DNA of 64,000 nt from Raillietiella orientalis. Lineage: Eukaryota. The stretch is from NCBI GenBank assembly GCA_036172245.1, contig JAYWIR010000087.1:62001-126000 (forward strand), given 5' to 3'. Both the position numbers and the translations under genes were made by a program. Position 1 is the first letter of the stretch. Every line of letters begins with the position of its first letter. The notes below the pieces were generated by a model, which saw only the letters and a list, made by a program, of their open reading frames with translations, was not told the DNA's origin and searched no databases. Below, piece after piece: positions 2,265 through 61,607 of the stretch.

Positions 2265-3904
2265 TTTTCACCCGGATTTCGCCTGGGCGTTTATTATAAA
2301 ATAAACATTTAGGAAGACGTGCATTGGCTGGACCATTGCTGCAGCCACGCACGAAGAAACAGAGCCTGCCGAGTCAAAAATTCGCAGACCGCTACGGTCC
2401 ACTACGGCAGCAGGGGGAAGGGTGGAAAACAAAAAAAAAAAACAAAAAGAAAAGAAAAAACTGGAAGGGTACGGGAAGGTATCACAGTTGCTGGTGTGGC
2501 CGTTGCATCCTTTGCAGTATACCGGCAAGCTCTTGCTACCTGCTTAGATCTAGGTGGAACCATCGCGATGCCCTCCTTAGGAACTGGGTAGCTGGCTGGA
2601 TGGCACCCTGGTCGTGTGGTCCTCCCGTAGCCTTGCTCCAGGCTACGACCATCCCGCGAAGGCAGCACAGAGCTGCTAACGAGGCCGCTGGCCGAAGGGC
2701 GTCTGCAACGAAGAGGGCTTTCAGTGCGTTCCTGGGGTCGCCGCAGGGGATTCCGATGGCCGCGGCAAAGCGAAACCAAAGGGGCCGAAGGGCAACACAA
2801 TCCACTAGCAGGTGGGGGAGGGACTCCGGTTTCCCACACCTGACGCAATTGGGGTCCACCGCTCCCCAGGTCCAGTGGTGTCGGCGGGCGTTGCAGGGGA
2901 GTCCCCAGTGCTGCAACAGGAGAGCCGACTGCTGCCGTTTTAAGTGGAGGGTGGAAGTGTTAATGAGCACCGGGGGCCACTTCAGATGTTCAATGGCGAT
3001 TGTGCAGAACCTTCTCGCCAGTACAGGGTGCCACCCGCGCGCTGTTCAATTTCGGCAACTTCCGCATCGGAGATGTAATGCATCTCTTGAAGGGTCGCCA
3101 AGTCGAAGTGTCGCAGGGTGTCTGACACGCCGCGTCTCTATCCGTCCCTGCGCAGCCCGTTGACGTTCCAACAGGCTACTCTGAACCGACGAAGAGAGGC
3201 GACTTCCTGCATTAAGGCTGGGAAGGTGAGCACAGGTTTCTCGCCTTGTCCGGTGACTGGTCACGAGACAGACCGGTCGATCTCAGAGACTGGACATCTC
3301 CATTCGAAGCTGCCCTACTTTTTGATGGAAGCTGAGAGGTGCGACCCATTCCCTCCTCTTTGTTCTCCAGCAACAGTTCCTCTTCGGCAACAACTCGTTT
3401 GCGGGTCTTCGGAAGGCAGTTGCGCGGTTTCGGGCGGGTTACGGGCTGTGTGTTCATTCTGGCGTACTCTGAATCGGAATCCGACAGTCGAGCGCTATCC
3501 AGGTGCTGCTTCTCTTTCCCAAAATTGGGAAAATAATTTGCTGCCTGTTTCTTAGCGCTTTCTGCTATTGCGGGTGTGACTTTTGTTCTTTTAGCCGCAG
3601 CAGCAGCTTCCCGCTCCATCCGCGAGAGCACGACTGCACAGGAGGAAAGGATCGCAATCTTTTTTTCGGGATGGTTTCGCAGGTTCCTTTCGCCCACTCA
3701 CCTTCACACTGAACTGCAAGGACCTCGAGGGTTTCTCTTTAATTTTCTCCCTCACCTGCGTCCAGCCGTCTTCCATCGCGTCGCAGTTCTTTTTGCCATT
3801 TTCAGATGGAGCTGCACCCGCGGATGTAAGAGGAGTTGGCTTGGCTGCCTCTTATGGTGCTGCCTCCGCGCATACGAAAGCCGCGACTCCTTCGGCGATC
3901 GCGA
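2265..3904 (-). mobile_element. 3' part of an antisense family B LINE: ORF1 C-terminus, APE N-terminus, ORF2 C-terminal CCHC finger, 3' UTR
   Basis: ORF1 tail stops at 3212. ORF2 begins MQEVASLRRFRVACWNVNGL...LATLQEMH, then jumps at about 3005 to CVRCGKPESLPHLLVDC. The 3' end AATAAACGCCCAGGCGAAATCCGGGTGAAAA lies at about 2265-2295. Confidence 0.85.
3893..3904 (+). repeat. Left target-site duplication of the U4-LINE tandem (CGGCGATCGCGA)
   Basis: Exact 12-mer repeated at 15323-15334, just after the A-tail of copy 2. The flanks on both sides belong to a minus-strand LINE ORF1. Confidence 0.85.
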
Positions 3905-3905
3905 G

Positions 3906-4045
3906 AGCCTTGCGCACGGGCGGTATCGCCGCCGCTGAACTTTAGGGAGGCGCGATTATTGCTAGTTGAAAACTATACCCAATACCCCGCCAAGGCAGTG
4001 ACTAACCATACTGCCGCGGCAATTTTTGAGTGCCCCAAGAGGGCA
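3906..4045 (+). ncRNA. U4: Full-length U4 snRNA-like sequence (140 nt) forming the 5' leader of LINE copy 1
   Basis: AGCCTTGCGCA start, TATCG..GCC..TGA..GAGGCGCGAT 5' stem-loop/kink-turn, TTATTGCTAGTTGAAAACT U6-pairing region, CCAATACCCCGCC, hairpin GGCAGT/ACTGCC, Sm site AATTTTTGA (4021-4029), terminal hairpin TGCCC/GGGCA. Colinear with the U4 consensus as I recall it. Confidence 0.93.
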
Positions 4046-4168
4046 AGTGTGTGAAGAAAAACAAGTGTGGACATAGTGCAACCGGGGACCATCTTCAGCA
4101 CCAGGAGCACCGAGGAGTCCGCGGTGGAAGACCTGCAGTCGTCCCGAGCAGCAAGACCAGCTGCCAGG

Positions 4169-5959
4169 ATGCAGGCACCGAGAGTGGAGAGGCCGTCGAC
4201 CCCCATGGAAACCATGGAGGTAACGTATGGCAACGGCGAGGAGGTGGAGGCGGCGGCGACGCCGAGGATCGCGCCCGCGGCGGGCTTTGCTGCGCCGACG
4301 GCGGCGATGCCAAGGGTCACGCCCGCGGTGGCGACGGTGGAGGTCGTGCCCGCGGCGGCGACGCCGAGGATCGCGCCCGCGGCGGCAACGGCCGCGCCTG
4401 CGGCGGCGATGCCGAGGGTCCCGCCCGCGGCGGCGGCGGCGGCAACATCGAGGGTTGCGCCCGCGGCGGCGTCCCAGGCGGGACCCGCGGGCGTCCACGC
4501 GGCGAAGGGCGCGCAAGATGCGGCGCCATCTTGCTCGGCTGCGGCATCTCAGCCGTTCTCCTACGCGTCGGTGGCGGCGGGGCAGGTCAGTGTCCACCCG
4601 CCAAGGAAGTTTGGAAAGCCCCTAAGGGGGAAAGTAGAAAGGGTGGACCGTCCGGTTGTCCAGTTAGGCCCGGAGGTAAAACCCATTATGTTTCGCACGG
4701 GGCTGATAAAGTTCAGCAACATTAGGGAAGTTTATCTGTCCCTAGATAAAACGGATTTGGACTTCGATCGCATTCAGGCGATCATTCCAAATAATTCAGG
4801 ATTCACAGTCTTTACAGACTGTGAAAACATCAGGGAGAGGTTGATCCAGAAAGGGATCAACATCCAAGGGAGGATGATCTGTGGTGTCGGCGAGATGCCG
4901 TACACCACGGTGTACATGAGCGGTATTTCCATTTACACGCCACAACTAACAATGTGGAAATACCTTGAACAGTTTGGAGAAGTTCTCGACCTCGAATTCG
5001 AGAACTTCTCTGGAAAAATCTTTTCCGGCGACATGATCGCCAAGATAAAGCTGAAGGAAGGAGCGCAGATTCCCGGGATAGCCGTCATTGACGAACCATC
5101 CCACTGCGTAAATGTACGCTACCGGCAGCAACCGGTATTTTGCACCGTGTGCAAGCAGTTCGGCCATAGGGCCGGCGCTTGCCCTACATCGAGATGCTAC
5201 CGCTGCGGCAAGATTGGGCATCAAGTCCGAAACTGCCCGCAGCCGGAGGTTTGTTCCTTCTGCAAGAAGCACGGACACGCGAAATGGAGCTGTCCGGACT
5301 TCGCAAATTGCAGAAGGATTCGTGGACTCTCTCCCGTGAGAGAGAGGAGTGTGAGGGAGGCGGAACAGCCTCAGAAGATGGCAGGAAGGCCGAAGAAGAC
5401 GAGGGAAGTCGCCCCGGCATCGGCGGACGGCTTCATAGAAGTCGGAAAGAAGGGGAAGAGGAGGATGCTCGTCAAGGAGCAGGAAGCCTCTCTTACCCCA
5501 GAAGTAGCGGAAGAAGGCGAAAAAATGGAGAAGGTACAGGAGGAAGAGAAAGCAGCGAAAGAAGTCACTCCGGAGTCGCAGGAGGCCCTGCAGTCCACCG
5601 AGGAGTTGACGAAGCTTTCAGAAGAAGTGATGGAGGTGCAAAGCGGGCCCCAGCAGGTGCAAATCCTGAAGAAGATCTGCGATGCACAGGAAACTGTGAA
5701 CCAGGTGGTGGAGGTGGCTGAACGAGAGAAGCTGGAGGAACAGCTTCTTGAAGTGAAGGCCAACTTCTGCGCCAAGGTCGAGATAGAGGCTCTATCTCGG
5801 AAACTAATAGCGCGAGCCGAACACTCTACAGAAGAGGCGGAAATAAACGACCTCACTGGGACGGAGAGTGACGCGGCAAGCGATAAACCCGCTCCTTCTT
5901 CAACGTCTGGGAGATCACGCTCTCCCAGACAGAAGAAGCTCAGGAAGGCCAAAAAGTAG
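4169..5959 (+). CDS. LINE ORF1 nucleic-acid-binding protein with three CCHC zinc knuckles
   Basis: Open frame from 4067 (GTG); first ATG at 4169. Ala/Pro-rich N-terminus, SYASVA motif, RRM-like block (YLEQFGEVLDL), CTVCKQFGHRAGAC, CYRCGKIGHQVRNC, CSFCKKHGHAKWSC, acidic coiled-coil-like tail, basic C-terminus. Confidence 0.9.
   Translation: MQAPRVERPSTPMETMEVTYGNGEEVEAAATPRIAPAAGFAAPTAAMPRVTPAVATVEVVPAAATPRIAPAAATAAPAAAMPRVPPAAAAAATSRVAPAAASQAGPAGVHAAKGAQDAAPSCSAAASQPFSYASVAAGQVSVHPPRKFGKPLRGKVERVDRPVVQLGPEVKPIMFRTGLIKFSNIREVYLSLDKTDLDFDRIQAIIPNNSGFTVFTDCENIRERLIQKGINIQGRMICGVGEMPYTTVYMSGISIYTPQLTMWKYLEQFGEVLDLEFENFSGKIFSGDMIAKIKLKEGAQIPGIAVIDEPSHCVNVRYRQQPVFCTVCKQFGHRAGACPTSRCYRCGKIGHQVRNCPQPEVCSFCKKHGHAKWSCPDFANCRRIRGLSPVRERSVREAEQPQKMAGRPKKTREVAPASADGFIEVGKKGKRRMLVKEQEASLTPEVAEEGEKMEKVQEEEKAAKEVTPESQEALQSTEELTKLSEEVMEVQSGPQQVQILKKICDAQETVNQVVEVAEREKLEEQLLEVKANFCAKVEIEALSRKLIARAEHSTEEAEINDLTGTESDAASDKPAPSSTSGRSRSPRQKKLRKAKK
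4249..4490 (+). repeat. GC/CpG-rich coding minisatellite (AAATPRIAPAA-like units) in ORF1
   Basis: Repeated GCGGCGGCGA(C/T)GCCGAGG..CGCGCCC units. The homologous array is at about 9950-10195. Confidence 0.8.
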
Positions 5960-5971
5960 GTCTCCCCCTTT

Positions 5972-8900
5972 ATGGCCTCATACCTATCGACCGCCAGGAG
6001 GCTGAACATCGCCTCCTGGAACGTAAACGGTTTGATCGACCAGACCAAGAGGAAGAGAATCGTGCGGACCATCGCACGACAAGATATCGTCTGCCTGCAG
6101 GAGACCCACAAGATGGGTCTCGAGGTTAGTCAGCGGATGGAACGGCGTTTCAATGGGCAGATGTTTGTCAGCGAGGGAGAACGGAACACGCAGGGTGTGG
6201 CGGTCTTAATCAAGAACCATTTGGCCCCCACTATCCTAGAAGTGTTCTGTCCCTTAGCTGGACGCATCATCGGAGTGCGACTGGCCTGGTCCGCTACTGT
6301 TCACCTTATTTTGCTGAGCGTGTACGGACCACACAGGCTAAAACATCGTTGCGCGGAGTCGCTGCATGCAGCACTCCGGGAAAAGGTCGCGCCCAAGGAC
6401 GTCGTGATCGTCGCTGGCGATCTGAACATCCTGGACGAGATTACACATTCCCAGGACGCCAGAGGAAGGTCGGCGTATCGTCGGCCATCCGACGAGTTCG
6501 GATTGTTGTGGCGAACAGCAAGCCACAAGCCGATCGATCACGTCCTCCATAGCACGGAATTAGGGAATCGTATTCTGGGTTTTCGCGACATACCCACCAC
6601 CCTGTCCGATCACCCGCTGGTGCGTTTGTCCCTAAGGACGGAGAATCCTCGGCGAAAGCAAGGCACCAGGGCAGCGCTCATCAGCATGCCCGTCTGGTTC
6701 GAAACACATCCTGGACATCAGGAGGTCCTAGAGGCGATTCTCACAGCGACTACAATTCGAAGAGTCGCCGACTGGGACAGCCTGAAACACAGGATACACC
6801 TGTTTGCGAATATGCAGTTTGGCGATAGACGATTGAGGCAGGAAGCATACCGGGAGCTGAACATCAAAGATCGCTCACTCTCCAAGTATTTCGAGGAATA
6901 CGAGAGTCGGTATGTCTTCCATAATGTAAAAGGGGAAGTCGGCGTGCTGGAGAAGAGGAATCTGGCAACAGATATCTTCTGCATCCAGTACGCCGATCAA
7001 AGTCGGCACACGTCTGAAGATATTGTAGATGCCTTCGAAAGGCACTATACGGAACATTTTCGACGCGAACACCTGTGTTTGACTGCACAAAACACCTTCC
7101 TGGGCTATTTGGAAAAGAAGATTGACGACCTCCAGCGGAAGAGACTGGAGGAGGATATTACTGAAGAAGAGGTGAAGACTGCGTTCGGTCAATTACGCAA
7201 GGATGTGGCAGCAGGCCCTGATGATGTTCCCATCTCTCATTATCAGAGGTATCTGCATGCCTACCTGCGTTTATTCCACCAGTTGACCCTCTGCATCCGA
7301 CAAGAAGGACGACTGCCGGAGTCCTTCTACGAGAGCAGGACGAGATTATTGCCGAAAGGGGGCGATCTGTCTAGGATAGCACAATGGAGGCCAATCTCGA
7401 TCCTTAACTCGGATGCCAAGTGGTTGGCAAAGATCTGGGCCAACCGCTTAGGCAAAGTAATGTCGAGGCTAATATCTCCTGTCCAGACGTGTGCGGTACC
7501 CGGACGTCACATGCTGGACAATGTCAAGTGCGCGCAGGCTATCGTGGGACTCAGCCGATACGTCGGAGAGAACCTGGTGCTTGCGTTCACTGACATGGAG
7601 AAAGCCTTCGACACCGTCGATCACGGGATGCTGCTGAAGATTCTGGAAAAGCTGGGACTCCCAGAATACTTCAGCATCTTCGTGCGAATGATCCTCCGGA
7701 ATCAACGCTTCCGGATAAAGATCAACGGAGTGGAAACGGCAGTCATTCGGATGGAGCGAGGAGTTCGGCAGGGCGACTCGCTAAGTCCGATGCTGTTCGT
7801 TATCTACATGGAGGCGCTCTCTTCTTTCGTCGAGAAGAACGGACGGATGAAAGGAGTAGAGGTAGACAACCAGAAGCTCACCCATCTAGCATACGCGGAC
7901 GATCTCCTCTTCTTCATAAGAGGAAAGAGGGATCAAGAAACGTTCCTGGACGTGGTGGGCCTTATGAAAGATGGATTGGGCTTAAAAATCAACGCCCAGA
8001 AAAGCCAGCTTTTGCCCGTCGGAATACTGGACCTCTCCACACTCATGGGGAGTGGTTTCCGTACGGTAGATACGGCTAAGTACCTGGGAATCCACATAGG
8101 CGACGACTCTGCGTCGAAGCTGCTGTGGACCGAAATCCTGGGGAAACGGCCAACGAAGCAGCAAAATACACTCGAGAGGACTTTGGGATGAAGCGAAGGG
8201 CCAACCTCTGGAACGGAGTACTCCTTCCAAAGGTACTCTTTGGAGCGGCTTTCGCTAGAATGAACAAAGAAACCTCGAGAGAAGTAGAGAAGCTGCAACG
8301 AAAAACACTGTGGGGCCACTATCGCCCAAGAGTCCGTTTAAAACCCCTGTGTCGTCCCAGGGAAGAGGGCGGTTCCGGGATGAAGTCGCCTGCACACTCC
8401 ATGGAAATCATGGATACGCGACACATACTGGACATAGCCTCCCGCTGGGATGACTGGCCGTATGCAGCACACAGGGCCTACGCGTTGTTGCTAAACAACT
8501 CGAAAGGCCTTATGACTGCGCTGCTAGGCCGAGCAGGAGAGTGGATGTCCATCGACCCAACCTGGAGGAGGAAGCAACGGCTGGTGCGCAAGCACAAAAT
8601 CAAGATCGTGCCGCGAAGCAGGGAACTCTGGCAGGAGGAATCCATCCTGGTGATCCCCTGGATGCTTCCGGTCCCTTCGGACACGAGAAGCTGGATCTAC
8701 CGGCGGCCCGGAGTTACCCTGCAACGAATCCAGGAGTGGAGAAGAGGAGGTTACCTACATCATACTCGTATACTTCGGTATATAGAGATGATGTTAGGAA
8801 GGTACACCCATATGACCCGTGAGGTGTGGATCAACCACAACGATCTCGCGTGGTCTAGGGTAACCAAAATTAACCTCAGAAGACTTATTCGTGAAGATGG

Positions 8901-9488
8901 ACAAGACATCAGTGCCCTCCAAGAAGCAGCCGAACGCTACGGGAGCGATCGCATCAACCTGCTAGCGATTGGCACCACGCTCTGGAGGAGTGACCTTCCG
9001 CCGAAGACCCAGGACGACCTCCTGATGTTTTACCATGGAGGAATCCAAAGTGGGTCTAGACTCCAGTATTTTACCGGAAGACGGGAAGATCAAGACTGCG
9101 TAGCATGTGGAGACACCGACACCAGACTTCATGTCTTGACGTGTCCCACATTGTTACACGACTGGCTGATCCTGAAAGGATCATAGGACTTACCAACAAG
9201 TCCGTTATGGAAATCCTCGCCGGGATGTTTCAGGGAGATGGTAATGTTCCCTGTTACAATCCCATGGTGAGGACGACCATAGCTCTCTTCATCACCGCCA
9301 TACTCGTGCGGTGGTGGAAGATGAGGAAAGCCAGAAGAGCCGCACCTCCGATGGAGATCCTTCAAGGACTCATCAAGAAGGAGATAGGCATCAGGATCTG
9401 TGGACGAATCCATGCCTGGACGTACCGGTTCATCCTGAAGAGGATTGAAGACGACGCCCGGGACCAAGCATCCGGAAACTCACCCTGA
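5972..9488 (+). pseudogene. LINE ORF2 (APE endonuclease, reverse transcriptase, C-terminal CCHC) with two frameshifts
   Basis: WNVNG, LQETH, VYGP, GDLN, IDH, SDH; AAGPDD, LLPKGG, WRPISILN, DMEKAFD, GVRQGDSLSP, YADD, KYLG; CVACGDTDTRLHVLTC. Split over ORFs 5972-8191, 8125-9186 and 9105-9488 (shifts near 8150 and 9178). Confidence 0.93.
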
Positions 9489-9617
9489 TAGCAGAACTTG
9501 AGAAACCCCAGAGACTTCAAAGCGGTAATACAGTGCCAGTGGTATGAATGAGATTGTAGTATGAATGTTATAAAATGAAAAATAAATTTACCCCACCCCT
9601 TGTGGGACTTGGGGAAA

Positions 9618-9738
9618 ATCGCCGCCGCTGAACGAAAGGGAGGCGTGATCATTGCTAGTTTAAAACTATACACAATACCCCGCCAAAGCAGTGTTTAAAA
9701 CCACTGCCAAGCCAATTTTTGAGTGCCCTGAGAGCGCA
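9618..9738 (+). ncRNA. U4: U4 snRNA-like sequence lacking the first 19 nt, leader of LINE copy 2
   Basis: Ungapped match to 3925-4045 with about 20 differences in 121 nt by hand count, many in loops. Sm site AATTTTTGA at 9714-9722. Confidence 0.88.
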
Positions 9739-9864
9739 AGTGTTTGAGTGAACGCCAGTGTGGAAAGAGTGCAACCGGGGACCATCATCAGCAGCAGCAG
9801 CAGCGCCGAGAAGTCCACGGTGGAAGTCCTGCAGTCGTCCCGAGCAGCGGGAACAGCTGCCAGG

Positions 9865-11655
9865 ATGCATGCATCTGCAGTTGGAGGAGTGGTGCGGCCA
9901 TCGTCCCCCATGGAAGCCATGGAGGTAACGTGCGGCAACGGCGAGGTGGCGGCAGGCATACCGAGAATCGCGCCCGCGGCGGGCTTTGCTGCGCCGACGG
10001 CGGCGATGCCAAGGGTCATGCCCGCGGCGACGACGGCGGAGGTCGTGCCCGCGGCGGCGACGCCTAGGATCGTGCCCACGGCGGGGAACGTCGCGCCTGC
10101 GGCGGCGATGCCGAGGGTGCCGCCCGCGGAGGTAACGGCGGCAACGTCGAGGTTTGCGCCCGCGGCGGTGGCGTCCCAGGCGGGACCCGCGGGCGACCAC
10201 GCGGTGCAGTGAGCGACGCCATCTTGTTCGGCTGCGGCGTCGCAGCCCTTTTCTTATGCGTCGGTGGCGGCTGGACAGGCGAGTGTCCACCCACCTAGGA
10301 AATTCGGTAAGCCGCTTAGCGGAAAAGTTCTGAAAGTGGACCGACCAATAGTCGAAATGGGCCCCAGCGTGAAGCCCATTATCTTCAAGACGGGGATAAT
10401 AAAATTTCATAACATCAGGGAGGTCTATTTGTCCCTCGACAAGACGGACATAGACTTTGATCGCATTCAGGCGATCATTCCATGGAACAACGGGTTCACA
10501 GTCTTTACAGACTGTGAAAACATTAGAGAGCGATTGATCCAGAAGAAGATCAATATACAAGGACGGATGGTTTGTGGTATTGGCGAGATGCCATACACAA
10601 CCGTCTTTTTAAACGGCATCTCCATCCTCACATCGCACCTAGCAATGTGGAATTACTTGGAGCAGTTTGGGGAAGTTCTTGACCTTGATTTTCAGAACTT
10701 CTCTGGAAACATATTTTCTGGCGACATGATCGCCATGATGAAGTTGAGGGAGGGAACGGTGATCCCTGGATTGGCCGTTATTGACGAACAATCATAGGGA
10801 GTGAATGTGCGTTACCGGCAACAACCGGTATTCTGCACCAAGTGCAAGCAGTTCGGCCACAGGGCCGGCGCTTGCCCAACGTGTCGTTGTTTCCGCTTCG
10901 GCAAACTAGGACATCAAGCCCGAAACTGCCCGCAGCCGGAGGTGTGCTCCTTCTGCAAGAAACACGGACATGCGAAATGGAGCTGTCCGGAGTTTGAAAA
11001 CTGCAGAAGGATTCGAGGTCTCTCTCCCGTGAGAGAGAGAAACATCAAGGAGGCCGAGAAGACTCAGAAGGCAGGAAGGCAGAAAAAAGTGAAAGAAGCC
11101 GTCCCGGTGTCGGCGGACGGCTTCATAGAAGTGGGAAAGAAGGGAAAGAGGAGGATGCTCGTCAAGGAGCAAGGATCTCCTCAAATCCTGGAAGCACCAG
11201 AGCAGGAAGGCGTGAAGATGGAGGTAGCGCAGGAAGGCGCGAAGGAAGAGAGACAGGAAGCCACTTAAGTGTCGCAGGAAGCTCTGCAGACTACGGAGGA
11301 GTTGGCAACACTGGCGGAGGAGATCATGGAGGTGCAGAGCGGTCCTCAGCAAGAGAAAATCTTGCAGAAGATCTGCACTGCACAAGAGAACATCAACCAG
11401 GAGGTGGAGGTCGCTGAACGCGAGAAGTTAGAGGGACAGCTTCTCGACGTGAAGGCGAACTTCTGCGCCAAGGTCGAAATAGAGGCGCTATCTCGAAAAT
11501 TGATCGCGCAGGCGGAACACTCTACGGAGGAGGCGGAAATTACCGACCTCACAGGTACGGAGAGTGACGCCGGCAGCGAGAAGCCCGCTGCTTCTTCATT
11601 GTCTGGAAGAGCACGCTCTCTCAGACAGAAGAAGCTCAGGAAGGCCAAAAAATAG
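9865..11655 (+). pseudogene. ORF1 of copy 2, interrupted
   Basis: Pieces 9748-10212, 10264-10797, 10801-11268 and 11269-11655 are homologous to copy 1 ORF1, with premature stops. One knuckle is mutated (CFRFGKLGH). Confidence 0.9.
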
Positions 11656-11668
11656 GTCTTCCCCTTTA

Positions 11669-14600
11669 ATGGCCTCTTCCCTATCGACCGCCAGGAGGAT
11701 AAACATCGCCTCCTGGAACGTAAACGGTGTGGTCGACCAGGGAAAAAGAAGAAGGATTGTGCGGACCATCGCACAACAAGACATCGTGTGCCTGCAGGAG
11801 ACCCACAGGATGGGTCTCGAGATAAGCCAGCGAATGGAACGGCGATTCAACGGGCAGATGTTTGTCAACGAAGGAGAACGGAACACGAAGGGTGTGGTGG
11901 TGCTAATAAAGAACCACTTAGCCCTTACTATTCTGGAAGTGTTCCGTCCCCAACCCGGACGAATCATCGGCGTGCGACTGGCCTGGTCCGCAACTGTTCA
12001 CCTTATCCTGGTGAACGTGTACGGCTTGCACATGCTAAAACTTCGTTGTGCGGAGGCGCTGCATGCAACACTCCAGCAAAAGGTCGCCCCTAACGACGTC
12101 GTGATTGTTGCTGGCGATCTCAAAATCTTGGATGAGATCATTCATTCGGAAGACGCCAGAGGAAGGACGGCGTATCGACGGCTATCCGAGGAGTTCGGAC
12201 TGATCTGGCGAACAGCAAGCCACAAGCCAATCGATCACGTCCTGCACAGCACCCAACTTGGGAACCGCATCCAGGGGTTTCGCGACACTATGACTACGGT
12301 GTCCGATCACCCCCTGGTGCGGTTTTCCCTAAGAACGGAGAATCCTCGGCAAGGCAATGCATCAGGGCGGCGCTCATCAGCATGCCCGCCTGGTTCGAAA
12401 CCCATCCCGGATATCAGGCTGTCCTGGAGGCGATTGTGAGGGCAACAACAATCCGAAGAGTCGCCGACTGGGACAGCCTGAAACACAGGACACACCTGTT
12501 TGCGAACATGCAGTTCGGGGATAGGCGCTTGAGGCAAGAGGCGTACCGGGAGCTGAACATCCAAGACCGCTCCCTCTCAAAGTACTTCGATCAATACGAG
12601 AGTCGGTACGTCCTCAATAACATAAAAGGAGAAGTCGGCGTGCTGAAGAAGAGAAATCTGGCAACAGATATCTTGTGCATCCAGTACGATGGCCAAAAGC
12701 GACAGTAGTCTGAGGACATCGTGGATGCCTTTCACAGACATTACACGAAACACTTCAGGCGACAACAGCTGTGTCGCTCTAGTCAACAGGCCTTCTTGAG
12801 CTATCTCGAGAAGAAGACCGACGACCTCCAGCGGAGCAGACTGGAGGAGGAGTTCTCCGAAGAAGAGGTGAAGACTGCGTTTGGGCAACTTCGCAAGGAC
12901 GTGGCAGCGGGCCCTGATTGTGTACCCATCACACACTATCAGCGGTACCTGCACGCCTACCTGCGCTTGTTCCACCAGTTGACCCTCTGCATCCGGGAAG
13001 AAGGCAGACTACCTCAGTCCTTCTACGAGAGTCGGATGAGATTGCTGCCGAAAGGAGGCGACTCTACCCAGATCGCCCAATGGGGGCCAATCTCGATCCG
13101 AAACTTCGATGCCAAGTGGTTGGCGAAGATCTGGTCCAACCGCTTAGGCAAGGTCATGTCGAGGCTGATCTCTCCGGTCCAGACATGTGCAGTCCCAGGA
13201 CGACACATGTCGGACAATGTCAAGTGTGCCCAGGCCACTGTTGGACTCAGTCGATACGTAGGCGAGAACCTGGTGCTGGTGTTCACTGACATGGAGAAGG
13301 CCTTCGACTCCATCGACCACGGGATGCTGCTGTAGGTTCTGGAGAAGCTAGGGCTTCCGGAACAATTCAGCAACTTCGTGAGGGCGGTACTCCAGAACCA
13401 GTACTGCCAGATCAAGATCAACGGCCAGGAGACGGCAGCAATCAGGATGAAACGAGGAGTCCTAAAGGGCGACTTGCTAAGTCCGATGCTGTTCGTCATC
13501 TATATGGAGGCGTTGTCGTCCTTTATCGATAAGAGCGGACGACTAAGCGGGATTACCATCGATAGCCAGCATCCTGCCCATCTGGCATACGCCGATGATC
13601 TACTCTTCTTCATCAAGGGAGAGAAAAATCAGCGTGCGTTTCTGGATGTGGTGGACCTGATGGAACAGGGCTTGGGCTTAAAAATCAATTCCCAGAAGAG
13701 CCAGCATTTGCCCGTCGGAATACTGGATCTCTCCACTCTAACGGGTAGTGGATTCCGTACGGTAGACACGGCCAAGTACCTGGGAGTCTACATCGGCGAC
13801 GGCTCTGCGTCGAAGCTGCTGTGGAAGGAAATCCTGGGGAAAACGGCCAAGGTAGCAGCCAAGTACACCCGAACGGACCTTGGGACTAAGCGAAAGGCCA
13901 ACATATGGAACGGAGTACTCCTTCCGAAAGTGCTCTTCGGGGCGGCCTTCGCGAGGATGAACAAGGACACTACTAGGGAGTTCGACAAGCTGCAAAAAAA
14001 AACACTGTGAGGCCACTATCGCGCAAGAGTAAGACTGAAACACATGTGTCGTTTCATGGAAGAAGGCGGTTCCGGGATGAAGTCGCTTGCACATTCCATG
14101 GAAATCATGGATACGCGACACATCCTGGACATTGCCACTTTCTGGGATGACTGGCCGTATGCGGTGCACAGGGCCTACGCGTTGTTGCTTAACAACTCGA
14201 AAGGCCTGATGATTGCGCTGCTAGGCAAAGTAGGGGAATGGATAACAATCGACCCGACCTGGAGGAGGAAGCAACGGCTGGTGCGGAAACACCAAATCAA
14301 GATCGTGCCGCGAAGCAGGGAACTCTGGCAGGACGAGTCCATCCTGGTGATCCCTTGGTTGCTTCCTGTCCCGGCGGACACGAGAAGCTGGATCTACCAG
14401 CGGTCCAGAGTTACCCTACAGCAAATCCAGGAGTGGAGGCGAGGAGGCTACCTACATCAAAGTCGTATACTTCGGTATACAGAGATGATGTTAGGAAGGT
14501 TTACCCACAGGACACGCGAAGTGTGGTTCAACCACAACGACTTCGCATGGTCGAGGGTAACCAGAACAAACCTCCGAAGGCTTATCCAAGAAAACGACCG

Positions 14601-15201
14601 TGACACCAGTGCCCTCCAGGAAGCCACCGAACGCTACTGGAGTGAACGGTTCAACCTGTTAGCGATCGGCACGACGCTCTGGAGGAGTGACCTTCCGCCG
14701 GGCACCCAGGATGACCTCCTGATGTTTTATCACGGAGGAATCCAGAGTGGGTCCCGATTGCAGCACTTCACAGGAAGACGGGAAGACCGAGACTGCGCAG
14801 CATGTGGAGACGACGACACGAGACTTCACGTCTTGACGTGTCCCACACTGCTGCATGCCTGGCTGATCCTGAAAAGGTTCATAGGACTTACCAACAAGTC
14901 CGTTATGGAGATCCTCGCCGGGATGTTTCATGGGGATGGTAATGTATCCTGTTACAATCCCATGGTGAGGACGACCATAGCCATCTTCATCACCGCCATA
15001 CTTGTGCGGTGGTGGGAAATGAGGAAAGCCAGGAGAGCCGCACCACCGATGGAGATCCTACAAGGGCTCTTGAAGAGGGAAATCGGCATCAGGAACTGCG
15101 GGAAGATCCACGCCTGGACGTACCTATTCATCCTGAAGAGGATCCAGGACGACGCCCGGGACCATCCAGCTGGAATTCCCCCCGGAAAAGCAGAACTCTA
15201 G
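11669..15201 (+). pseudogene. ORF2 of copy 2, interrupted
   Basis: WNVNG, LQETH, SDH, DMEKAFD, YADD, CAACGDDDTRLHVLTC spread over five ORF pieces with stops and a frameshift near 12355. Confidence 0.9.
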
Positions 15202-15322
15202 TGCAACCCAAGGACCCCCAAGTGCAAAATGTTCGTATTGAGTGAATGAGAGTGCGAATGTTAATTTTGTAGTTGTATAGAAAAATAAACTTACCCCACC
15301 CCTTGTGGGACTTGGGAAAACC

Positions 15323-15334
15323 CGGCGATCGCGA
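15323..15334 (+). repeat. Right target-site duplication of the U4-LINE tandem
   Basis: CGGCGATCGCGA, identical to 3893-3904. Confidence 0.85.
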
Positions 15335-16791
15335 AAGGCGCTGCCGCTTCCTGATCGGAGGATTCACGTGTTGTCTTTGCGACCGCTGGGAGCGCTGCTG
15401 TAGCTGTTGAACTCGCCGTAGCAATTTCCTCCGTGACCGCGGTAGGCACTGCGTCCGCGAGCGAGGTGTGCGGGCGTAGCGGTTGTTTTTACGAGGCAGT
15501 CTGCGCCTGGGGCACCTTGGCCGCGGTAGGTTTATCCAGCACGGAGTTCTTTGCTTTCGGGCGCGAATTTCTCGTATCGGGCGAGCAACTGCATTCCTCG
15601 CCACTTGCCCAGGCCTTGATAGGAGGATTTGCGGTCGTGATGCCGACAGTAGGACTCTTCTTGCACTTCGGCGCACTTTCTCCTGCGTTGAAAATTTTCT
15701 GCGAGGTCTCGGTGAGATCTCGCATTGCTCGCGAGCTTCCTTCGGCACGGTAGCCTGAGGCTTCGCCGCGACGCGTTTTTCATGTTTTTCTCCCCTGTTT
15801 TATGGAGAAGAGAAAGAGCTTACTGCGCATGCGCGTTCACGGTTTTCGCAATTCTCTCGGAAGTTTTGAGGTTTTTTTCCCTCGATTCGCGGAGTTTATT
15901 CCGCGATGCGATACGCGCTTCGATCTTGCGCTTTTCGTTTTTCAAAAGCAGCTCCGGGCACGTCTCTTTTGTGTGCCCGAGCTCGTGGCAGTAACGGCAA
16001 GCGGCCGAGGGACACTTCCTAATGCGGTGTCCCTCCTGCCCGCATTCCGCGCACGCAAACGTTTGCCCCGCAAACCACAGGCGGACGGTCATCTCATCCA
16101 CCTGCAGTCGTGCGGGCATTGCCCGGCGATCCGTCATCGTCACTGGCACCTAAGCGTGGTGGTCTTCGAAACCCTTAGCAGGGTTTGGCAACCTCCAAAG
16201 CGCGTGAACGGAGGCGAATTTTTCAAGGGCCTCCATGACCTGGCGGACCGAAAGGCCCTTGCCCACTCCAATCTGTCGGACAACGAACGACTGATCAGTA
16301 GTGAATGGGAGTATTTTCTGCCTACGAATAAGCAGCGGCGTGTGCAGCAAACGCTGCGTAAGGAGAGCGTCCTAAGTAGACACCTCCCAGTAGCCGCACC
16401 CACTCATGGGAATGAGGGACTCCAACTGGCCTCTATAAACTCCAATCCGTTGAAGTTCCTGACCAAACTCGCGTCCAGCACGCTCAGGAATAAGGACATT
16501 TACCTTATACCTAAGTGCAGGTATGTAGCCATTTGCTACATGCAAATGGCTACATGGTCGGGAGAAGGTCCTATTGTAGGCGATAGGGCAGCGATCTTGG
16601 CGGACGTCCTCGCCTTCGGCTAGGACAGTGGCTGCTTGCTAGCAGCCGAAACCGCCATCTCAGGAGCAGGTACCATTTTCTTCTTGCAAGTGATGTTCTT
16701 CTTTGCTCCCATTGCGGCACAGAAGCACTGCAGAACAAAAACACACAAGAGACAGCCTACCGCGGAGGGACGCAAAAGCACGTACGTACGC
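15335..16791 (-). mobile_element. 5' end and ORF1 of the family B LINE interrupted by the U4-LINE tandem
   Basis: 5' motif variant CGTACGTGCTTTTG at about 16774-16790; knuckles CAECGQEGHRIRKC and CRYCHELGHTKETC. ORF1 appears to continue at 3904 downward. Confidence 0.85.
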
Positions 16792-19128
16792 GACCGGCGC
16801 TGATACGGGAGACGAGAGATGTTCCCGTTTCTTTCCGCTCAGCAAAGGTGCCGCTCCTGCCAAAAGGCGGGGATTTGCGCCACCCCAGCAACTGGCGTCC
16901 GATCACCTTGGTGAATTCGGACGTCAAGTTGTTCTCGAAGCTATGGTTCGCGCGGCTGGGGAGAATCGCGCAGTCCTTGGTAAGTCCGGAGTAGACGTAT
17001 GCTGTTCCGGGGCGTTCCATGGATGCGAATCTCTTCTTCGCGCAAACATGGTTCGAGTTGCAGCAGCGCGTGGCGCAGCAGAGCCAGGCAGCTGAAATCG
17101 CCGCTGCCTAAGGTAAGTGGCGGTATTCAAGGCACGATGGAACGCCGAGAGCCTTAGTGGTCGCCGTCGATCTCTGCAAAGCGTTCTAAGCGTAAACCAG
17201 GACCTCCTTCTCGAGATTCTGGGACGCCTAGATCTCCCGACGCACCCCATCGCCTACTTGCGCTCCTGCTGGCGCCACGCGTTATGCTGTATCTCTTCCA
17301 GCGGGCGTCACGTGTACGGCATTCCCATACGGCGGGGTATCAGGCAAGGAGACAGCTTAAGCCCCCTGCTCTTCAGCATCTTCTTTGAGTTGGTGCTGAG
17401 GGCGTACAGGCTGACGCTGGCCAACCTGTCGAGCTTTTGCCCGGGAACACCGGCCGTGGCCGCCTATGCTGACGACCTTCTCCTGCTGCTGCCCATGTCC
17501 ACCCCGGCGTCCAGGCTCGAAGACTTCTTCGAGATCATTCGTCGGGGAGCGGTCCTGAGCGTCAACAGTAGGAAATCAAACGCTGTACCGGTTGGATCTA
17601 CGTGGGAGTGGAATTCCGAGTGGATCCCTCTGGAGATCTCGACGGGCAGGTGCTTTAAGTACCTTGGCGTTCCCTTGAGCGCCTTCTGTCCAGCAGAAGC
17701 GTGGTCGGACTGCCTTCACAAGGCCTAGACTGCTCTGGGTCCGTTCCAAGGCGGCAAGTTCCTTCTGTCGTAACGGGCCTTCGTGTGGAACATTTTCGTT
17801 GCCCCTCTCCTCCTGTCCTATTTTTTGTTTGTCCTTCTCCCTACTCGGCTAAGCGTTGGGAGCAAAGTCTGTTGCGAAACGCCTTGTTGGGACCGGAGAG
17901 TTCCAGGATACGCCTTAAAGTCTTAAGGCTCTTCGGCGGGATGCAGAATTGGGCATCCTGACTCTGGAGCGGATCCGACTGCTAGTGAAGCTCCGCATGC
18001 TGGTACTTTGCGCCCAGCTATGGACTACTCCCTGGTATGCTCCAGCGCGGCTGCTGCTGCGGCGCTGCACGGGTGGAGACGGAATGCGTTCGTTGCACCT
18101 GCGCACGCAGTGCTCCCAGAGAGGATTCGGCTTCCCTTTGAAGCAGCTTGCCACGCTTCTGGGAAAGCATGAGTGGATCTCCTGCCGGCCGACGAACTTC
18201 AACGCCTGGTGGCAGGAAGCCTCATCGTCCTGAGCAGCGCAACAGGATGTGTCCCGTTTGGAACTCCGTTGCGTGAACCGTTTTTCATACTGTCCAGTGG
18301 GGGAGCTGCTTGAAGACCAGGACCAGTGGATACGCCTAGCCGCTACGCCCCTTGCCGAAGCACTGTCTGGAATGATGGTGCAAGACGACAGTGATCTGCC
18401 GGCGAGGTGGGAGATCAGTTGCGAAATCGCAGGCGAAACCCGACTGCTGGGCAGCTGGCGGACTTGCGAGCTGGCAGACGCTGCCACGCCTTGCCTTCGT
18501 GCCAAGGGACTTTTCCGAAGGAGCGAGCTCCGCGGGGTGCCCACCGAAGAACTTGTGGTCCCTTCTGCGTGCTTGGACGCGACTGTGTTCCCCCTACAGT
18601 GCAAACAGGACGCTTTTCTGCTGGAGAATTGGGGTCTCTACTGCGACCAGCGCGAGCACCTGGTTTCCGGGGGAGTTGCGTCCCCGAACCGTGCCAAATA
18701 CGGAGCGATGGATTTGCTTCCGCATATGCTGTTTAAATGCGGTGTCCACCAGGAGCTGTGGCGGTGGCTGTGTACAGGTCTCCTGCACCCCGGACTCATA
18801 ACAATGGATTGGATTCGCCACTTCTTCATTCGTGGCGGTCTTTTTCTTGGAGCGGTTGTCCCATTTATCTGCTGCATCCGCGCCATTTTTGGGGCCCGCC
18901 ACGTATTGCAGATGCGAGTGGTCCCAACATCTGTCCCGACATGGCATCCTGCAACCTGCAACTGGCTGCCGGGTGGCACCACCTTAGAGCAGAAGTGAGG
19001 ACGGAGATCGGCGGCACTCACCGCCAGTTCTGAGAATAGGAACGTTTAAACTGGATATCCCTGTCTTCGCCCTCCCATTTAATTTATTTATTCATTGTGC
19101 GCCCCCCGTCATGATCTGATCTCTCAGT
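16792..19128 (+). mobile_element. Decayed family B ORF2 (RT to C-terminus) and start of 3' UTR
   Basis: LLPKGG, NWRPITLVNSDVK, GIRQGDSLSPLLF, AAYADDLLLL, FKYLGV, degenerate C-terminal finger LPHMLFKC. Confidence 0.9.
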
Positions 19129-20525
19129 GTCAGAGCTCTTCCGCGGCATTTTTGAAGGCCACGTCATCGCTGGTGGCGAAGGTTTCCGCGGGCTCCTCAG
19201 TGACCCTATCGAACGCGGCGTCCTCGCTTTCGACGCGCGAGTCTCGCGTATCACCCTCTAATCCTAGAGTGCGCTCGTCCACGCGAGTTTCGATCGCGTC
19301 CCCGTCAGCTGTTTTGTCAACTTTGTCGCAGGCGGCCTCGGCACGAACGGCTACGCGTTCCAATGCCACCGAGCATTGTCGAAGTTCGGCGCGCGGTGGC
19401 GATTTTTTCTTTTTCGCGACGGTAGCCTTATTCTCCGACTTTTTCTCAACTTTCTTCTTTTTTTCTTCCCTGTCCTTTTTTAGCTTCCAGTCCTCTTCGC
19501 TCTCCGTAATTTCCGAATGTGTTTCCTCGGACACTTGTGTCTGAGGCTGAGGATCTGGAGGCAGTTGCCGGCCATTTTCCGCATTAGGTCTTTCAACCTT
19601 TCTCATGAGTTTCTCCTGTGCCTTTTGGGCAACAGGGGACACAGGGGTAAGGCGCTTAGGGCACACGCGTCGAACGTGGCCTTTCTCCCCGCATAAGTGG
19701 CACACAATGTTCGGGCACCTTTATCTCAGATTCCCTACTGCATTGCAGTACCCACAAAATTAGGGTTTACCCACGAACCAGATGTCTACTGGTTCTTGGC
19801 AGACCTCCAGCTTGTGAGGAAGCGCGCCACCCTGTTTCACCGTGACACGCGCTGCGGTTTGGCCTCCAAAAATGCTATTGTAACCTTCAAAAATCGTAGG
19901 CTGCGGCCACAACGCGTGCACTACACCGTGTTCACGCAACTGATCACCAACCGCTGACCGCTTCATGCGGCTGGTGATCCCGGTGAGATGGACCACTACA
20001 GAGCGGTCCATCGTCACCAGCAAGATCTTCCGACCATCAACGATCAGCGGGTCGGTGAAGAGGCGTTGAGCCAAAGTGATATCTTTGCATATCACCTCGA
20101 CACGCTGACCCCCATTGATAACGGAGAAACCTTCAAGATCTTGCTCTTGAATATTTGCTTTCTGCAGCGCCTTCGAGAAGGCGCGTGCAGTCCGCCCATC
20201 AAATAATGGTCCTACCTTATATATGGGCGAGAGTTTATATCCTGCTGCCCGGTAGGCCATTTGTTCCGCCAAGGCTTCTGCGCTGGGCGCTTCCATCATG
20301 GCGCTCCATGTCTTCGCCTGCTGCGGCGAAGACGATTGCGGGGCTGATGCCCACGATCCAGTAGGCTGTAAGGGAGAACTAGCCTCCTCCACGCCTACTT
20401 CCATCGCGGTGTCCTCTGGCATCGTAGCCATCGGGCACCGGCGATGTGAAAAACCACAAACACTCGTAAAGAAAACTGTCCTCAAGCCTCGCTGAGTAAG
20501 CGACGGAAAAACATGTCCGCTCTCG
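19129..20525 (-). mobile_element. Family B LINE 5' end and ORF1 fragment
   Basis: 5' GAGCGGACATGTTTTTCC; MATMPEDTAMEV...TWSAMM, RRM-like VVVHLTGI...HGVVHAL, knuckle CHLCGEKGHVRRVC. Confidence 0.88.
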
Positions 20526-20539
20526 ACGAGCCGGGATTG

Positions 20540-21270
20540 GGGTAGGTACTCGCAACAAAAGGGCGTATTTATACGCCCGTCGTTAAGCGAGGATCACCAA
20601 CGTCCGTCGCTTGGCCGAATACCGAGCGGGGGCTGAGCGCCAGGGCAAGCACTCCGGGCCTCATACCCTGCTCGACGATTAGGACCGGGAACACTCGGCT
20701 TCTGCCGCGATTCAACACATCGGGAAAGAAGTTTATTCTTCCTTGTACGCCAGGGCGCTTTTGGAGCGGGACGCCTCGCGACTGCTGCTCCTGGACGGAG
20801 CCCCGGCCATAGGGGAGGAAGAGAAGTAAAGTCTCTACGAGCCTTTTATTGCGGTGAAGATTTCACCGCTAAGCACCAGGGGAGGATGGCCTGTCCACGG
20901 AGTTTTTTCAAAGCTTTGTGGCAGAGTCGACCCCCTTGGTGCATAAGTTGACACAGATGATCCGGGATGTAGGCGATGTTCCCGCCTCGCTTCGGTCAGC
21001 CAGAGTGAGGCTTCTTCCGAAAGGGGGAAAACTGAGGGATTTAAAGAACTGGCGTCCGTTCACAGTCATGAACACGGACGTCAAGTTGTTCGAGAAACTG
21101 TGGGCTGCGCGGCTCGGACAGGCATCCAAATCCGTACCTAGCCCGGAGCAGACTTACGCTGTTCCTGGACGAAGTACTGAGGCTAACCTTTTCTTCGCCA
21201 GCACATGGTTTCATGTGCGAAGCGAAGTCAAAGAGAATAAAAGATCTCCGCGGCCTTATTGGGACACGGA
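20540..21270 (+). mobile_element. Family B ORF2 linker and RT N-terminal fragment
   Basis: YSSLYAR, APGEDGL.TEFF, RVRLLPKGG, NWRPFTVMNTDVK, QTYAVPGRS. Confidence 0.85.
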
Positions 21271-22482
21271 CTTTCAGAGGCAGTTCCAAGCGCTCCCGCA
21301 CACGGTTTCCCGTGTGTTTTCCTGGACGCGGAAAAGGACGCAGACGGTCCAGCAGCCTTCATTAAGTGCGTGGCCGCACTCTTGGGCTGCTTCGAAGGGG
21401 ACGATTTGCCCCCAGGGCTGCATGGCATTTTTCCCGCCTGCGCGGCTGTCTGGGATAGTGACTTCCCCAAAACAACCGCGCTCTTTTTTGCGGGACTGCC
21501 ACTCTTTCAAGGTTTGCTCTTCGCGCCCGATTTCTCCCGTTGCCACAACGGGGGATCTTTTCGGCGCGGACGGGGTCGATTGTTGGCGGCTTTTCACCTG
21601 CCGTTTGCGCTTCAGCTCGGCGCACCCTTTAATAAAGTGGCCGAGCTGTTTACAATAGCGGCAGTTGCGAGAAGGGTACGTCCACGGACGGTGGCCCTCT
21701 GCGCCGCAAATGCCGCAAGCCGGTCGCTGACCGTCAAATTTAAGGTGGACGATTGCATCGCTTGCCTGCAATTGCGAAGGCATGTCCCTCCGATGTGCCA
21801 TGGTGACGCGCGCCATGGCAAGTCCGCTGTGAGGAGATGCAATCCTTTTAATGGGATTGTCTGCTTTCCACAGCGCGTGCACCGTGGCGAATGCACTAAG
21901 TGCACCGACGAGCACGCGATCGGGCGTGTCCACCTGGACGGCGGACAATCGGACCACGAACGACTGGTCCATGGCCTACGGGACGACCTTCTTCCTGCGT
22001 AGGTTAAGCGGGGTGCGGAGAAAGCGCTGGACTAGGGATGCCCCTTTATAGTGCACCTCCCAGTGTCCTAGCGCGTTAACAGGCATGACGGCCAGGAGGT
22101 CGTCCTGCAGGACCCCGACGCGCAAAAGCTCGTCGCAGAGAATTTCTACAACCCCGTCGGAGATAGTAACACTCACGGGATAGCAGAGAGCGAGCTTGTA
22201 GCCATGGGCTGCATATGTTGGCAGCTCCGCTTCGTCGGGCGATGCTCCGTTTGCTGCGGTCGCCTTGACGACGTTGGCGAGGCTTCTCGCCGGTGGCGAG
22301 ACATAGGCATCAGACATGCCGAACCTCCGGGGTAGATACTCCGTTGCCCGCTGTAGCCTTCACATCCATCTCCTCTGGCACGGGCGCCGTGGACATTTTA
22401 GCGGACGCACGTAAGCATACCACACGCAAAGAAGACGGAAAGGAATCGAGCTCCCGGAGCAACACTGAACACGTCCGTCCAG
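21271..22482 (-). mobile_element. Family B LINE 5' end and ORF1 fragment
   Basis: 5' GGACGGACGTGTTC; MSTAPVPEEMDV, SLANVV, MDQSFVVRLS, CGICGAEGH, CRYCKQLGHFIKGC. Confidence 0.85.
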
Positions 22483-51010: not shown

Positions 51011-51017
51011 CGCTCTA

Positions 51018-52180
51018 GGGCGAACGTTTGTTGTTGGTGCTCCTCGTGCCAGAACCACTTCTCCCTCAGTGCTAGCGTTCAATGGTCCAGTGGTCGATGC
51101 CTGACACGATCACCAGTGAGTGCCAGGGGGCCGCGGGAACGTCGCCCCAAGAGGCGAAGGAGTGCCAGGGGGCGAAGGCAACGTCGTTCTCAGAGGCGAA
51201 GGAGGAGGGGACATCCGCCTTCACAGAATCGATCCCCGCAGCAGCGCGGGCGTGGAGCGCCGTCATGGCGACGCCATTGCTTGCAATTGCGGCGGAATTG
51301 TCTGCCTATGTGGAGGAAGGATATAACTTCTACTGTTCTACAAGGTAGGCAATCTATATTGTTCTGAGAGCGCTCGCCAATTCTCTAAAGGGATGCGTGC
51401 TCTCAATATACAGGAGGAGTAGCTCTGCGCTATGACCATCCGTAGCGGGGGTAGTACGTTGAGCTGAACTGCAAACAGGCAGATGTGGCCCAGCGTCAGC
51501 TCAAAAACACCGTGGCGATGGGGACACGCAGGCTCCTTCCCATTACGGCGGACCCCAGTATGGTGGAACACCTGTTGAATGTTATAGCGCGGATGCGGAA
51601 AGAACAGGTACGCGCCGCTTTAGATGAACATGGGACAGTCCATGCAGTTTGGACCAAGCCTAGTACCTTTGAGAACTACACTAGACTGCAATGCGGCCTC
51701 ACGGCTGACACGTAACCGTCCGCGAGGGCTCCTTCCTACACCACAAACTAATGCTCAGCGGCGAAACCGTCGACCGTTGGTATGTGGAGAAGCCCAAATA
51801 ATGTGGTTTCTGCCACACGTAAGGCCACTTCGAAACGAGGTGCCCCAACGTGCAGTGCTTCGTATGGGGTACGATGGGCCACACGAGGAAGGTGTGCTCA
51901 CAAGCTTCTGTGCGCCTGGTTTCCAAGAGAAACTTTAAAAAACGCGCCCGGCTGCTACAGAAAAAGGCTGGCGGCGAAAGCAGCCGCGACAGCTGTGCCA
52001 CCCGCGTCCATGGTCCAGGCTGCACCCGAGACCCCGGCAAAGAACGCCGAAAATGTGGAGGGAAACGGCTAGAAGCCTGGGTGGCAAGAAGCTACAACAG
52101 AAAATAGATCGAAAGAGAACGCCGACTTGAAAAAAGCTCGCCTACCAAAACAAAAAAAAAAAAGAGGGTAGTGAAATCAT
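51018..52180 (+). mobile_element. Family B 5' end and decayed ORF1
   Basis: GGGCGAACGTTTG 5' motif; AWSAVM, HGTVHAVW, CGFCHT*GHFETRC, CFVWGTMGHTRKVC; 42-bp internal duplication near 51118-51201. Confidence 0.8.
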
Positions 52181-52199
52181 AAAAAAATGCAGCGTCGTT

Positions 52200-55740: not shown

Positions 55741-55741
55741 T

Positions 55742-59268: not shown

Positions 59269-59280
59269 AGGAACAGACTT

Positions 59281-61592: not shown

Positions 61593-61607
61593 ATCGCCGA
61601 AACCTGT

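Follow-up and report, generated by a model that had tools for sequence, protein, structure and literature searches.

The 64,000-nucleotide (nt) window analyzed here, taken from the forward strand of Raillietiella orientalis contig JAYWIR010000087.1 (assembly GCA_036172245.1; positions 62,001 to 126,000), contains two head-to-tail copies of a long interspersed element (LINE), here called family A, each of which is headed by sequence of the U4 small nuclear RNA (snRNA). The two units (3925-9617 and 9618-15320; all coordinates are window positions, position 1 being the first letter of the window) align over 5.7 kb at 81.8% identity. With their open reading frames (ORFs), untranslated regions (UTRs), and flanking target-site duplication (TSD), they are arranged as follows.

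3893 to 3904, no strand: left TSD, CGGCGATCGCGA, with the single base G3905 between it and U4 nt 1
3906 to 4044, + strand: U4 head of copy 1, complete (RF00015, 97.9 bits, model 1-138)
4045 to 4168, + strand: spacer/5' UTR of copy 1, 85.5% identical to 9737-9864
4169 to 5959, + strand: ORF1 of copy 1, 596 amino acids, intact, with a CCHC zinc knuckle (PF00098, E = 6.7e-06)
5972 to 9488, + strand: ORF2 of copy 1, with domain matches to an apurinic/apyrimidinic (APE) endonuclease, a reverse transcriptase (RT), and, weakly, zf-RVT; no premature stop, two frameshifts
9489 to 9618, + strand: 3' UTR of copy 1, with a terminal hairpin (9591-9614) and an AAAA tail (9615-9618)
9619 to 9736, + strand: U4 head of copy 2, nt 21-139, joined directly to the copy 1 tail (RF00015, 48.1 bits over model 20-138)
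9737 to 9864, + strand: spacer/5' UTR of copy 2, delimited by alignment to copy 1
9865 to 11655, + strand: ORF1 of copy 2, with three premature stops (10210, 10795, and 11266) and 78% amino acid identity to copy 1
11669 to 15201, + strand: ORF2 of copy 2, with one frameshift (about 12352-12439) and three premature stops (12706, 13333, and 14008)
15202 to 15320, + strand: 3' UTR of copy 2, with a terminal hairpin (15295-15316) and an AAAA tail (15317-15320)
15323 to 15334, no strand: right TSD, CGGCGATCGCGA, preceded by two extra bases, CC (15321-15322), after the copy 2 tail

The element is an autonomous L1-like retrotransposon of the non-long terminal repeat type, and this label rests on its domains and on a match to a solved structure. 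ORF1 carries the CCHC zinc knuckle, and ORF2 carries the APE endonuclease domain (PF03372; E = 2.5e-18) on the N-terminal side of the RT domain (PF00078; E = 2e-33). The solved structure nearest to ORF2 is that of human LINE-1 ORF2p (E = 7e-50), with R2 far weaker (about 1e-23), and zf-RVT was matched only at an E value of 0.039, short of its cut-off. ORF2 is about 1,170 amino acids long if one corrects for the two frameshifts of copy 1 (one near 8188, the other within 9105-9186), places at which copy 2 has a single frame. At 8188-8191, an ATGA is shared by the end of the copy 1 frame and the open frame that follows, and because copy 2 is continuous there, the overlap is read as a frameshift lesion rather than a designed ORF boundary. 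The LINE 3' terminus has the form ...ACCCCACCCCTTGTGGGACTTGGG(G)AAAA, both copies finishing in ...CTTGGG(G)AAAA, and directly before the AAAA tail both carry a conserved terminal hairpin, CCCCA.CCC....GGG...TGGGG (9591-9614 and 15295-15316), which is probably a recognition element for the RT. The N-terminal part of ORF1 (4234-4571 and 9933-10168) contains an internal direct repeat that has a period of 102 nt and encodes an Ala/Pro-rich motif.

The head of copy 1 matches the Rfam covariance model for U4 (RF00015; curated gathering score, 46 bits) over its full length (3906-4044; model 1-138), with 97.9 bits and an E value of 6.7e-21, and it contains the 5' stem-loop, the Sm site, and the 3' stem-loop. 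The match in copy 2 (9596-9736) scored 54.9 bits (E = 1.6e-09), and the window has no other Rfam match, whether at the gathering score or at E ≤ 1. Of the second match, the first 22 nt (9596-9617) belong to the LINE 3' terminus, which recurs at 15295-15320, and are not U4. They align weakly to U4 nt 1-19 within the match and contribute about 7 bits; at this score, the likeness was set aside as too weak. True U4 sequence in copy 2 begins at 9618/9619, corresponding to U4 nt 20/21, one A being assignable to either the LINE tail or U4, and 9618-9736 searched alone scored 48.1 bits (model 20-138), still above the gathering score. An earlier note on this DNA had placed U4 sequence at the start of both copies, complete in copy 1 and from 9618 (nt 20) in copy 2, and the scores of 97.9 and 54.9 bits bear it out.

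Over nt 20-139, the two heads differ at 20 of 120 positions without gaps (a proportion of 0.167), matching the earlier count of about 20. The description of these differences as lying largely in loops fits only half of them, since the terminal loops at 3941-3943 and 4001-4009 hold 10 of the 20 and the other 10 lie elsewhere; outside the terminal loops, 10 of 107 positions differ (9.3%). The Sm site AATTTTTGA and the GCAGT/ACTGC central stem, both noted previously as kept, are identical in the two heads. Of the 28 base pairs in the RF00015 model, 23 are kept in copy 1 and 20 in copy 2. Two stem changes between the heads are from G-C to G-U (3953 and 4036), and the change at 4009 is from G-U to G-C; being drawn from only two sequences, these stem-preserving changes are no proof of structural selection. 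The minimum free energy fold of the head plus spacer was no better than those of shuffled sequences (z = -0.35). The spacer is 124 nt long and homologous up to the U4 3' stem-loop, with 18 of 124 positions differing (0.145) and three gap columns. No indel separates the copies at the U4-spacer junction, and the U4-spacer-ORF1 joint is identical in both, so that the homologous spacer described earlier as running from U4 into ORF1 is confirmed at 85.5% identity.

The TSD encloses the whole dimer, from the complete U4 at nt 1 through the tail of copy 2. It matches at 12 of 12 positions, or at 14 of 15 when the next three bases are counted, and a match of this quality was obtained in 0 of 5,000 shuffles and in 1 of 5,000 random pairs of 40-mers from the repeat-rich window. 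Since the TSD adjoins U4 nt 1, U4 is the 5' end of the retrotransposed unit. The 5' boundary at U4 nt 1 is thus that of an insertion made by target-primed reverse transcription and accompanied by a TSD of 12 to 15 bp. The same adjacency argues that the DNA upstream of 3906 would be the insertion target rather than a U4 promoter. No copy of the TSD lies between the two elements, and a double insertion at one target site was rejected for this reason. An empty-site paralogue was sought within the window, and none was found; the insertion site of the dimer (3893-3904) matches nothing else there. Of the two LINE 3' junctions in the window, one falls at U4 nt 20/21 and the second in DNA that is not U4.

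The coding regions were compared by the Nei-Gojobori method, aligned in the reading frame of copy 1. The ratio of nonsynonymous to synonymous divergence (dN/dS) between the copies is 0.173 for ORF1 (dS, 0.68), 0.167 for the first part of ORF2 (dS, 0.64), and 0.176 for the second part (dS, 0.51). Neutral DNA duplicates predict a ratio of about 1, and the value of about 0.17 therefore identifies the copies as two long-separated lineages under purifying selection. In addition, the boundary between the copies is the exact LINE 3' terminus, which points to reverse transcription and not DNA duplication. The copies did not arise by local DNA duplication; they are two long-separated active lineages, both with U4 and the same leader joint. 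Pooled synonymous sites differ at a proportion of 0.426, significantly above the head (Fisher's P = 1e-8) and the spacer (P = 2.5e-10), and the 3' UTRs differ at 35 of 124 positions (0.28).

About 3.8% of random substitutions yield stops, so that the counts of premature stops bound the divergence accumulated after insertion. In about 1,770 codons, copy 1 contains two frameshifts and not a single premature stop; copy 2 has six premature stops and one frameshift. The implied postinsertion decay is 0 to 1.8% for copy 1 and 1 to 6.5% for copy 2, which is too small for the 16.7% divergence of the heads. If the heads had been identical at the arrival of copy 1, 9 to 17 stops would be predicted in copy 1, and the probability of observing zero is at most 8.5e-05; therefore, the copy 1 head arrived together with copy 1. 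A long-TSD model, with nicks at nt 20 and after the spacer and with U4 nt 20-139 as duplicated target, was rejected by the same comparison (0 versus 9 to 17 stops). The proposal of the earlier note that the element carries U4 as a fixed, inherited head is sustained by the TSD that starts from U4 nt 1, by a junction shared at a dS of about 0.6, and by the conservation of the head beyond synonymous sites, and such a heritable head appears well supported for the sample of two copies. We infer that the head may have passed from parent to daughter through RNA, under constraint. The note's further suggestions, that the head might have been made by read-through from a U4 promoter and could give the RNA Sm-core assembly, cap hypermethylation, and nuclear import, are conjectural.

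Further junctions were seen among short contigs from one DNA sequencing run (X1) that were placed on 3600-4800, with 8 of 18 contigs listed, and among 6 listed loose ends of the same run, which has 9 others. Two other runs (X2 and X3) gave no contig in this region. A 232-nt contig corresponds to 3925-4117 with 3 differences (98%), has the LINE 3' terminus upstream, and runs on into the same spacer; it gives a third head-to-tail joint, again at U4 nt 20. A 455-nt contig corresponds to 3947-4049 with 12 differences (88%), and upstream of this it has the 3' terminus, TCG, and then a different 5' stem-loop. These two contigs are the ones, of the six loose ends listed, in which the LINE 3' terminus stands immediately before U4 nt 20, and they represent two further sequence variants. 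The loop GAA of the copy 2 type (at 3941-3943) occurs in three of the contigs listed. A 124-nt contig spans the 5' flank and nt 1-35 of U4, with about 90% identity. The 5' flank including the flank-U4 junction (3821-3940 and 3600-3736) is matched in X1 at only about 88 to 90%, and some contigs of the element are matched at 98 to 99%. This suggests that the flank contigs may come from a paralogous or allelic copy that shares the insertion, such as a diverged haplotype, a strain, or a segmental duplicate. The summed word depth in X1 amounts to 36 to 41 for U4 nt 23-145, about 8 for nt 1-22, and 8 to 18 for ORF1; depth is not equivalent to copy number, and these values are a hint that most heads may be without U4 nt 1-19.

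The reading that we consider probable is an L1-like LINE family whose transcribed and reverse-transcribed unit starts with U4 and the 124-nt leader and whose new copies join at U4 nt 20/21 of older heads. Copy 2, the older, would have been the first to insert, entering a non-U4 site with its full U4 head and making the TSD. The younger copy 1 would later have been primed at U4 nt 20/21 of the copy 2 head, and the end of its complementary DNA, complementary to U4 nt 1-19, would have annealed to the upstream remnant, leaving a seamless complete U4; the R1 transcripts described below offer a precedent for this last step. Repeated rounds of priming at nt 20/21 would yield head-to-tail arrays. Alternatively, the joint might have arisen by template jumping, with reverse transcription passing from a 5' end located at nt 20 to another RNA. 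That LINE 3' ends recurrently meet U4 at nt 20/21, a feature not considered in the earlier note, suggests U4-directed integration or template jumping as a role of the head that is as likely as the one proposed there, and it also raises a rival of the Utopia/R1 kind.

Several observations weigh against this probable reading. The head supplies no promoter, since snRNA promoters are external, as described for snRNA-derived elements (PMC4494074). The outer 3' junction of the dimer lies outside U4, and integration is thus not strictly U4 specific; the two 3' junctions also have no clear common nick-site motif. The copy 2 head is altered at the conserved U4 positions 3957, 3968, and 3979, so that the constraint is not strict. 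The argument from the ages of the copies is weak, with P = 0.03 for 6 versus 0 stops and P = 0.18 for 7 versus 2 lesions. Only two copies of the family are fully readable, and they are adjacent to each other. One X1 contig that is about 91% alike has unrelated A-rich sequence just upstream of 4111, within the spacer, and this relative could be a copy truncated at its 5' end or could belong to a subfamily that has no U4 head. In addition, the extra X1 junctions are on short contigs from a single sequencing run and could reflect inheritance instead of separate events.

In a more speculative extension, the primary targets would be genuine U4 genes, where insertion would rebuild an intact U4 before the element and the external U4 promoter would transcribe the element from nt 1. 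Such a target-restoring LINE would integrate at nt 20/21 of genuine U4 genes and bring its own U4 nt 20-139, so that U4 is rebuilt behind the host promoter; we hold this to be doubtful. A parallel is found in tRNA-gene-integrating phages, which carry a replacement 3' end. If this extension were true, the host gene would be repaired and not destroyed, and the head would act as promoter trap, homology arm, and gene patch at once, which would account for both the complete, constrained U4 and the array joints at nt 20/21.

The rival that survives best, which we nevertheless judge unlikely, is that the element targets U4 genes in the manner of Utopia, Keno, or R1 and that the heads are host sequence. 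The element proper would then start in or after the spacer and would insert at nt 20/21 of tandemly arranged U4 genes, the 5' fragment and the intergenic DNA being lost, so that an intact U4 gene precedes each copy. The dimer would descend from a read-through RNA, initiated at a host U4 promoter and terminated at the second element, that was retrocopied to an off-target site. The copy 1 head does resemble a working U4 (97.9 bits), and the copy 2 head has a decayed look; half of the head differences fall in the two terminal loops, which are parts variable among snRNA paralogues; and the divergence outside the loops, 9.3%, is barely over the ceiling of about 8% for neutral decay of two copies. 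An intact snRNA upstream and snRNA from a fixed internal position downstream are also the pattern described for Utopia in the U2 arrays of Phytophthora; there, the element is preceded by an intact U2 and followed by U2 sequence from nt 39 onward, and the flanking sequences are read as host genes with deletions (PMC4640811). However, the TSD shows that U4 was reverse transcribed with the LINE at least once, and the identical, indel-free junction at a dS of 0.6 would need two precise independent deletions. The final, non-U4 3' junction is left unexplained by U4 targeting, and the divergence of the heads exceeds what the youth of copy 1 permits if both came from one homogenized array. Host U4 paralogues differing by 9 to 17% would be needed. 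The rival further depends on the dimer being such an off-target retrocopy, and the read-through RNA must also bypass the 3' end of the first element.

It is also unlikely, somewhat more so than this rival, that the head is kept as an snRNA mimic, serving Snu13 binding, an Sm ring, a trimethyl-G cap, and nuclear reimport or retention, with the joints a by-product of template jumping. This functional explanation is compatible with a heritable head and would differ from the reading that we prefer only on the purpose of the head. The Sm site, the central stem, and the 5' stem-loop, including the UGA...GA internal loop that we take to be the Snu13-binding K-turn, are kept in both copies; the changes at 3953 and 4036 leave G-U pairs; and the head has diverged less than synonymous sites. 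However, equal conservation would be expected if the head were integration homology, array-internal copies are without U4 nt 1-19 and so would not begin with the native U4 5' end, and the two sequences contain no true compensatory change, copy 2 retaining only 20 of the 28 pairs in the model.

A single U4/LINE template-switch chimera of the U6/L1 kind, followed by DNA duplication in place and decay, is highly improbable, for although the copies are adjacent and full-length sense snRNA/LINE chimeras with TSDs, U4 included, have been described (bioRxiv 10.1101/2025.02.02.635956), a dN/dS of 0.17 at a dS of 0.5 to 0.7 is incompatible with the neutral decay of duplicates, the duplication boundary is the exact 3' terminus of the element, run X1 contains more variants of the joint, and the chimeras described in that source have variably 5'-truncated LINE 3' parts and not full-length elements.

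The U4-headed LINE, a 5.7-kb unit that encodes ORF1 and ORF2 and is headed by a complete U4, shares features with several known systems. The crocodilian SINEU elements also carry a 5' head derived from an RNA polymerase II spliceosomal snRNA and inherited within subfamilies, are mobilized by L1/Tx1-type machinery, and leave transcription initiation unexplained, with external snRNA promoters (Kojima 2015, PMC4494074). As described in that source, however, SINEU elements are shorter than 500 bp, noncoding, and mobilized in trans, and their U1 or U2 fragments were added recurrently at varying positions. The LINEs Utopia and Keno have 3' ends at a fixed internal snRNA position, and in Phytophthora, intact snRNA lies upstream and several diverged Utopia families occupy one array (Kojima & Jurka 2015, PMC4640811). 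They differ in that their target is U2 (nt 39) rather than U4, that Utopia has a restriction-like endonuclease, and that the flanking snRNAs are host genes; the sections of that source on these elements report no TSD-bounded retrotransposed unit at snRNA nt 1. At the locus described here, by contrast, the TSD encloses U4, and the divergence of the heads exceeds the decay of the copies.

The U6/L1 and other snRNA/L1 chimeras resemble the present element in having a full-length sense snRNA 5' of LINE sequence inside one TSD, and U1 to U6 snRNAs are reported, in the sections of the source bearing on them, only as one-off chimeras with L1 3' ends (bioRxiv 10.1101/2025.02.02.635956). Those chimeras are unique, dead-on-arrival events with a variably truncated L1 3' fragment, whereas the U4-headed LINE is full length and has the same junction in two selected lineages and one further X1 contig. 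In R1 and R2 elements of the Drosophila melanogaster type, a 5' tag taken from the target allows the complementary DNA to anneal upstream of the nick, which makes the 5' joints precise, tags accompany off-target insertions, and tandem arrays occur; R1 transcripts carry 6 to 28 nt of upstream 28S sequence, and the tags are found at non-28S insertions too (Stage & Eickbush 2009, PMC2718515). The R1 tag of 6 to 28 nt derives from cotranscription and is renewed with each insertion, in contrast to the tag of the U4-headed LINE, a 139-nt structured snRNA plus leader that diverges with the element.

Full-text literature searches, with Repbase and Dfam outside their scope, found no U4-headed or U4-targeting LINE, and the snRNA gene-targeting transposons named in the relevant text of one source are only Keno, Utopia, Dada-U1, and Dada-U6 (PMC4640811). 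What was already known comprises snRNA heads on dead one-off chimeras and on one noncoding SINE (short interspersed element) group, as well as LINEs that target U2 genes. An autonomous LINE with an inherited, constrained, complete snRNA as its 5' module would, if true, be a new solution to the problem of promoter and 5' junction, and it would join three phenomena that have been treated separately, namely template-switch chimeras, snRNA-headed SINEs, and snRNA gene-targeting LINEs. It may also give reason to reexamine the oomycete arrays in which intact U2 copies, so far unexplained, precede Utopia elements.

No member of family A turned up in the protein and metagenome collections. No homologue of ORF1 was found in a set of 5.8 billion proteins searched at near and shorter lengths, and the relatives of ORF2 in the protein set are only distant, at about 25 to 34% identity (best match, about 30%). 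In a metagenome search, ORF2 returned only two distant loci with 28 to 31% identity, neither with an Rfam match at E ≤ 0.1, and a metagenome scan for the exact pattern of the 3' terminus gave 0 matches.

The window contains other LINEs. Family B forms a head-to-tail pair (55729-61596 and 61597-64000) with about 74% identity over 2 kb and a spacing of about 5,870, and its ORF1 is about 24% identical to that of family A. The 5' ends of family B have no Rfam match, and comparison with the family A spacer gave scattered matches only and no homology. Since family B is also paired head to tail, tandem LINE pairs may be common in this genome. Fragments of other LINE families occur in both orientations at 938-2234, 15702-22104, 45578-46995, 48975-54632, and 59278-60185. 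Their RT- and ORF1-like tblastn matches are 20 to 45% identical to family A, and the U4-LINE dimer thus sits among LINE-derived DNA.

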